Assembly: GCF_000026545.1 (NCBI RefSeq)
Contig: NC_011601.1
Source of the DNA: Escherichia coli O127:H6 str. E2348/69
Lineage (GTDB): Bacteria > Pseudomonadota > Gammaproteobacteria > Enterobacterales > Enterobacteriaceae
Length of the DNA stretch: 64,000 bases
Strand: one strand, 5' to 3'
The notes beneath the pieces were generated by a model, which was not told where the DNA came from, did not search any database, and worked only from the letters and a program-made list of their open reading frames with translations. This document shows, piece after piece, positions 47,927 to 47,946 of this stretch (position 1 is the stretch's first letter; every line of letters starts with the position of its first letter). The translations under genes and the position numbers were made by a program.

Positions 47927-47946
47927 TTCTTACGCCTGTAGGATTA
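47927..47946. promoter_or_regulatory. Candidate EvgA box in emrK-evgA divergent promoter region
   Basis: ttcttacgcctgtaggatta resembles the reported EvgA inverted-repeat consensus (TTCPyTACA-N5-TGTAPuGAA) as recalled. Confidence 0.4.

Follow-up and report, generated by a model that had tools for sequence, protein, structure and literature searches.

An EvgA box upstream of emrK in enteropathogenic Escherichia coli E2348/69 matches its K-12 counterpart

The window analysed here, a stretch of 64,000 nucleotides, corresponds to the chromosome of the enteropathogenic strain (EPEC) Escherichia coli O127:H6 E2348/69, and gene identities follow the RefSeq annotation of that record, to which it is 100% identical. 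The 501 bp around the site of interest show 100% identity to E2348/69 and match some 5,400 further complete E. coli genomes at 95–99%. The site lies between two divergent transcription units. On the minus strand, emrK (46590–47753), the first gene of its operon, starts with GTG and encodes the membrane-fusion subunit of the EmrKY-TolC pump (387 aa, one difference from K-12), and emrY (45052–46590), the second gene, encodes an MFS permease (512 aa, identical to K-12). On the plus strand, the nine-codon leader open reading frame (ORF) evgL (48142–48171; MLHCKGNNL), identical to K-12 b4781, ends in a stop codon that overlaps the start codon of evgA (48168–48782), which encodes a NarL/FixJ-type response regulator of 204 aa, 100% identical to K-12 EvgA. 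It is followed by evgS (48787–52380), encoding the full-length, 1197-aa hybrid sensor kinase that phosphorylates EvgA. The 414 bp between emrK and evgA are non-coding. Downstream of evgS, RefSeq places yfdE, yfdV, oxc and then frc (56417–57667, minus strand), and beyond them yfdX (58179–58811, minus strand) and then ypdI.

The evgL leader is absent from the RefSeq annotation of E2348/69 and present in the K-12 record; CsrA-controlled translational coupling from evgL to evgA has been described (PMC11210196). EvgS carries 43 substitutions in its 1197 residues relative to K-12, with many in the periplasmic domain, alongside an unchanged EvgA. Upstream of emrY the dsd locus has decayed, with dsdA frameshifted (43620–44944) and dsdX reduced to a fragment (43384–43602), and it adjoins a sucrose (csc) cluster (38270–43154) and prophage remnants (torI at 37542–37742, DUF551 and ead/Ea22-like genes). 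This stretch, at about 37500–44950, is the 'island' of which an earlier, sequence-only reading of the window had spoken. Two adjacent tRNA genes at 19990–20142 on the minus strand are the only Rfam matches within the window, and the Rfam search of the emrK–evgA gap returned no RNA family. An ORF of 63 codons with a TTG start (47790–47981) that overlaps the site was dismissed; it is unannotated in every record examined.

EvgA reportedly binds an 18-bp inverted repeat, the EvgA box, with the half-site TTCPyTACA, and we take its box-bearing targets in K-12 to be emrKY, yfdX, frc (yfdW), ydeP, safA(b1500)-ydeO and yegR. The sequence-only reading had proposed a 20-nucleotide inverted repeat of this type at 47927–47946. 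The string ttcttacgcctgtaggatta is found at exactly those positions, inside the emrK–evgA gap, so that its sequence and place stand. The extent and symmetry had to be revised: the element is an 18-bp imperfect inverted repeat, TTCTTACG-CC-TGTAGGAT, at 47927–47944, which leaves the final 'ta' outside, and only five of the eight arm positions pair, short of a perfect palindrome. A generic inverted-repeat search did not report it. What gives the element its significance is that each half (emrK-proximal, 47927–47934; evgA-proximal, 47937–47944) matches the half-site consensus, not that the halves are complementary to one another. Compared with the consensus TTCYTACA-NN-TGTARGAA (TTCYTACANNTGTARGAA), which we rebuilt from frc, yfdX (two sites), safA, ydeP and yegR, the box agrees at 14 of 16 specified positions, bearing out the proposed consensus match; the mismatched bases are G8 and T18, and the conserved positions are C3/G16 and T5-A6-C7/G12-T13-A14. 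It lies 174–191 bp upstream of the emrK GTG start codon, the side expected of an activator site for emrKY, an EvgA target in the literature, as had also been claimed. The K-12 counterpart (NC_000913.3, 2,483,513–2,483,530) is base-for-base identical. Judged from sequence, this is the already known emrK EvgA box, and the site is as conventional as the earlier reading had called it. A full-text literature search for the box sequences, the consensus or the term 'EvgA box' gave no useful match, the primary footprint papers lying outside its scope.

The window contains further boxes of the same kind. A perfect match to the consensus (TTCTTACAACTGTAAGAA, 57918–57935) precedes frc by 251 bp, and two boxes with centres 38 bp apart lie upstream of yfdX, at 58947–58964 (one mismatch) and 58909–58926 (three mismatches). 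The same consensus occurs upstream of safA, ydeP and yegR in the K-12 loci fetched for comparison, and the boxes compared sit 100–270 bp upstream of their start codons. With two mismatches, the emrK box is among the less perfect, against zero or one for frc, the distal yfdX site, safA and yegR. Published lists of EvgA-induced genes include frc, oxc and emrKY (PMC4283999) as well as yfdX (PMC5706723), and an EvgA site is described as present at all directly regulated genes (PMC4283999). The upstream region of K-12 gadE holds no box with three or fewer mismatches, though gadE-mdtEF is EvgA-influenced. The only match in that locus, TTCTTACGCATGAAAGAA (L004:7887–7904; two mismatches, 13.2 bits), falls inside the K-12 mdtE coding sequence and was treated as a probable chance occurrence.

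We next asked how often such matches would arise by accident. Scanning the 64-kb window with the consensus yielded three sites with at most two mismatches (0.05 expected) and four with at most three (0.59 expected), and each of the four falls in the promoter region of an operon known to be under EvgA control (emrK, frc or yfdX). A weight-matrix scan, which the sequence-only reading had suggested as a check, was run with a symmetrised leave-one-out matrix trained on six EvgA boxes other than that of emrK. The emrK box scored 18.5 bits, a value that about 0.02 positions would reach in 64 kb of random sequence, and ranked fourth of 63,983 window positions, with only three in-window training sites above it. 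Within the 414-bp gap it was the best position by 13 bits, the runner-up reaching 5.5 bits. By these scores, and by a consensus rebuilt independently here, the emrK box is a clear member of the EvgA-box family. The same matrix gave 14.7 bits to ATATTACAGAAGTAATAA at 30940–30957, where short ORFs overlap one another; 0.15 sites with such a score are expected in 64 kb, and we regard this one as a probable chance match.

Conservation adds to this picture. We aligned eight E. coli spanning the database identity range (E2348/69, K-12, AST85, 300709, FORC_028, APEC O2-211, PE164 and NT1N34). None of the 18 box positions varies among them, against 10 of 31 positions in the adjoining flank towards evgA, which varies more than any other part of the gap. 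Since invariance among the eight is shared by 31% of the 18-bp windows across the gap, it is supportive and not decisive by itself. In the divergent Escherichia lineage represented by E. coli SCPM-O-B-8794 (nucleotide identity 93% in evgA and 89% in emrK), the box, again 241 bp from the evgA ATG, reads TTCTTACACCTGTAGGAA (L006:1256–1273), a perfect consensus. It differs from the E. coli box by two changes, which fall exactly at the two mismatched positions and are both towards the consensus. The contrast between a perfect box there and a two-mismatch box in E. coli may reflect tuning of the emrKY induction threshold.

These data bear on the possibility that the resemblance is accidental and without regulatory role, the true EvgA site lying elsewhere in the gap. 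Such a reading could appeal to the degeneracy of the consensus and to the two mismatches and poor self-complementarity of the box itself. It has to contend, though, with an expectation of only 0.02–0.05 such sites per 64 kb, with the lack of any other position above 5.5 bits in the gap, and with a box that is invariant in E. coli beside a variable stretch and perfected, not degraded, in the divergent lineage. We regard it as next to negligible.

Another LuxR/NarL-type regulator of the acid network (RcsB, GadE or NarL) could in principle use the site instead of EvgA. Half-sites are alike across the family, with TCCTA- or TAAGA-like cores; TAGGATT at 47939–47945 coincides with 7 nt of the GAD box; and RcsB is reportedly required at some EvgA-dependent promoters. 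The arrangement TCYTACA-N2-TGTARGA, however, is common specifically to promoters of the EvgA-only regulon, RcsB-type boxes have their half-sites in the opposite order (TAAGA...TCYTA), and the GAD-box match, read from the sequence, ends after its seven nucleotides. Use by one of these regulators in place of EvgA is thus very improbable.

We conclude that 47927–47944 is very probably the EvgA box of the emrKY promoter, where it would serve as a high-affinity operator for the phosphorylated EvgA dimer. This interpretation agrees with published work on the system. As relayed in PMC9496106, Kato et al. 2000 found EvgA to bind the promoter region of emrKY and to activate it directly; the emrK promoter has been used as a direct EvgA reporter (PMC5706723); and a Shigella mutant deleted for evgA no longer induces emrKY in macrophages (PMC6393483). 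We propose that EvgS would be activated by mild acidity combined with alkali metals and, once active, would phosphorylate EvgA, a dimer of which would occupy the half-sites TTCTTACG and ATCCTACA. Bound EvgA would then switch on an otherwise weak emrK promoter on the minus strand that lacks a −35 element, leading to production of the EmrKY-TolC efflux pump. The distal dimer may in addition nucleate the binding of more EvgA at 47897–47902, where it would contact RNA polymerase by the −35 position.

The sequence-only reading had further claimed that the regulatory wiring is intact. Box and EvgA are identical to those of K-12, EmrK, EmrY and EvgS are full-length, and the EvgS of E2348/69 responds to acid (PMC5706723). 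EvgS of B2 strains is generally acid-blind, and E2348/69 is the sole tested B2 exception (Roggiani et al., PMC5706723). Since operator, regulator, sensor and target are all intact, the claim holds at those levels. The link from EvgAS to emrKY in EPEC E2348/69 thus follows the K-12 paradigm in its operator, regulator, sensor, pump genes, evgL and frc/yfdX boxes, so that what is known of this regulation in K-12 can be carried over to the pathogen for acid- and macrophage-induced efflux. Beyond annotation the finding has little importance.

Because the gap is divergent, the box could act on evgAS too, and we weighed whether it is mainly or additionally an autoregulatory operator of evgL-evgA-evgS, with control of emrKY secondary. 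The box is upstream of both operons, and EvgA has been 'reported to be autoregulatory' (PMC11210196). The geometry on the evgA side is unfavourable to this idea. The core promoters of evgA span 48010–48055 on the plus strand and comprise a −35 hexamer TTGACA (48010–48015), an extended −10 element TGgTATACT (48040–48048), an annotated 5′ end at 48046 and a sigma-S start at 48055. The 5′ end of a published evgA leader construct, which begins ACTTGTCG (PMC11052181, Table S5), maps to 48046; the placing of the evgL ATG at +88 of the sigma-S transcript (PMC11210196) implies a start at 48055, which fits TGgTATACT. Relative to these starts the box is centred at −110.5 (48046) and −119.5 (48055), and a distance of 110–120 bp upstream of both is far for direct activation. 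Wild-type evgA expression, moreover, shows no acid response (PMC11210196), and in the statement carried by PMC8174306, which cites Eguchi 2003, the Utsumi/Eguchi group describes evgAS as 'not autoregulated'.

Natural variants of the region speak on both sides of this question. We searched across species with a degenerate pattern of evgA codons 1–10, which hit only four of the species representatives in genome_contigs, leaving E. albertii and E. fergusonii outside the comparison; a match on a 398-bp Rhizobium contig was left out of the comparison as too short. Klebsiella pneumoniae ATCC 13883 (L008:1175–1192) and Buttiauxella sp. B2 (L009:4244–4261) carry an identical box-like 18-mer, TTCCTACAGCTGTCATCC, upstream of genes for EvgA homologues (66–71% identity), in flanks that are otherwise unalignable. 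It scores 14.6–14.8 bits with the matrix, at 0.15 expected per 64 kb. Upstream of it in Buttiauxella lie genes of the SDR and LysR families, with no emrK-like gene nearby. A box retained upstream of the regulator gene, in one case without an emrK-like neighbour, favours a role in evgAS expression.

On plasmid pCP131-IncFIB (L017, NZ_CP053722.1; 5263–9833 and 10127–10547), an IS1-flanked segment carries evgA with its promoter and the EvgA box, together with a truncated evgS; the IS1 boundary falls at about window position 47846, and emrK is lost. About 18 similar plasmid records are present in PLSDB, the plasmids being conjugative IncF plasmids. That the box stayed with evgA after IS1 had removed emrK again favours an autoregulatory use. 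Next to the plasmid evgA segment lies a YmgB/AriR-family gene, with a yegR-like EvgA box, TTCCTACATAAGAAGGAA, upstream of it. In the chromosome of E. coli NCTC10444 (L010, 3289–4176), by contrast, IS1 and a fimbrial operon stand in place of emrKY and the box. From about position 47993 of the window homology returns, leaving evgAS with its core promoter only, and since evgAS persists there without it, the box is dispensable for retaining evgAS. Taken together, we consider an autoregulatory operator unlikely, though worth keeping in view, and return to the reading of the box as the EvgA operator of emrKY.

We then examined how such an operator would be placed relative to the emrK promoter. Six EvgA-box promoters (emrK, frc, proximal yfdX, safA, ydeP and yegR) were aligned facing their genes, without gaps over about 57 bp. 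In this alignment a second conserved element, nTCYTn, lies exactly 42 bp, or four helical turns, nearer the gene than the distal half-site. At emrK it takes the form of a degenerate third half-site, GTCCTC, at 47897–47902 on the minus strand, in the same orientation as the promoter-distal half and 42 bp from it towards emrK. The T-C-Y core stands at the same offset in all six promoters and in the plasmid promoter. GTCCTC is unchanged in the eight E. coli, and the divergent lineage has ATCTTC, which preserves the Y. We read 47897–47902 as a putative secondary site of EvgA contact, lying against a −35 position that is non-consensus, a layout that would fit an activator-dependent promoter.

Five of the promoters (emrK, frc, proximal yfdX, safA and yegR) also have a −10-like hexamer whose centre lies 63–65 bp downstream of that of the box; in the plasmid AriR-like promoter the distance is 64 bp. 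The preferred candidate at emrK is accordingly TAAATT (47868–47873, minus strand), invariant in nine of nine aligned sequences, with a predicted start near 47861; this would set the box centre near −74.5 and leave a leader of about 108 nt. A rival candidate is an extended −10 element, TGgGATAAT (47843–47851, minus strand), whose predicted start near 47836 would put the box centre near −99.5. It is the better-looking of the two, with five of six hexamer matches plus the TG, and its hexamer (47843–47848) is likewise invariant in nine sequences, but its spacing from the box differs from that seen at the other EvgA-box promoters. The sole minus-strand match of a sigma-70 scan (48030–48001) was rejected as the emrK promoter, lying upstream of the box relative to emrK. 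Among open transcription-start tables we found none containing emrK. The shared promoter context, that is, T-C-Y at +42 and a hexamer at about 64 bp, was derived in this same analysis and not from the literature; emrK has both.

The promoters also resemble one another beyond these elements, safA with ydeP on the one hand and frc, proximal yfdX and emrK together on the other ('CAAAwGnCACGG'), and both sets look like duplicates. As several of the compared promoters thus look paralogous, the shared architecture rests on fewer independent cases. The arrangement may nevertheless form a composite module, made up of the box, a phased third half-site 42 bp downstream at −35 and a −10 element about 64 bp from the box centre. 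We tentatively suggest, as a possibility that we hold to be doubtful, that the emrK box is the distal end of such an EvgA module of about 75 bp, spread by duplication and present even beside the IS1-captured evgA of IncF plasmids, and that its sub-optimal sequence has been kept to give a higher threshold for EvgA~P. If true, the efflux pump would need more EvgA~P than the oxalate and acid-resistance genes.

The layout can be set beside better-known operators. NarL binds 7-2-7 sites, inverted TACYYMT heptamers separated by a 2-bp spacer. The emrK box shares with them the regulator family and the pairing of two half-sites across a 2-bp spacer, and differs in heptamer sequence and in the regulator itself; the likeness is one of layout. 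At the fhaB promoter of Bordetella pertussis, BvgA occupies a distal high-affinity inverted repeat and cooperative secondary sites that reach −35, and fhaB is divergent from bvgAS. This is a homologous two-component system, EvgAS having been named for its similarity to BvgAS (PMC9496106), in which regulator and target are likewise divergent and a distal inverted repeat is combined with a helically phased weaker element near the promoter, an element that for emrK is predicted. The half-site sequences differ, and the emrK secondary site is known as one degenerate half-site in sequence; bvgAS is clearly autoregulated, whereas autoregulation of evgAS is disputed. The boxes of the K-12 EvgA regulon have the same 18-bp layout, half-site consensus, regulator protein, location, T-C-Y element and −10 spacing, and show no substantive difference from the emrK box of E2348/69. 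The extended promoter module, the natural box variants and the plasmid-borne evgA with its box offer modest leads for the study of two-component promoter architecture.

In the predicted emrK 5′ leader, a short hairpin resembling a terminator precedes a U-rich tract (GTGCAACACATGCAC TGTGTTTGAT; 47828–47842, minus strand); one was found against 0.1 expected, and it could be a leader structure or a chance occurrence.
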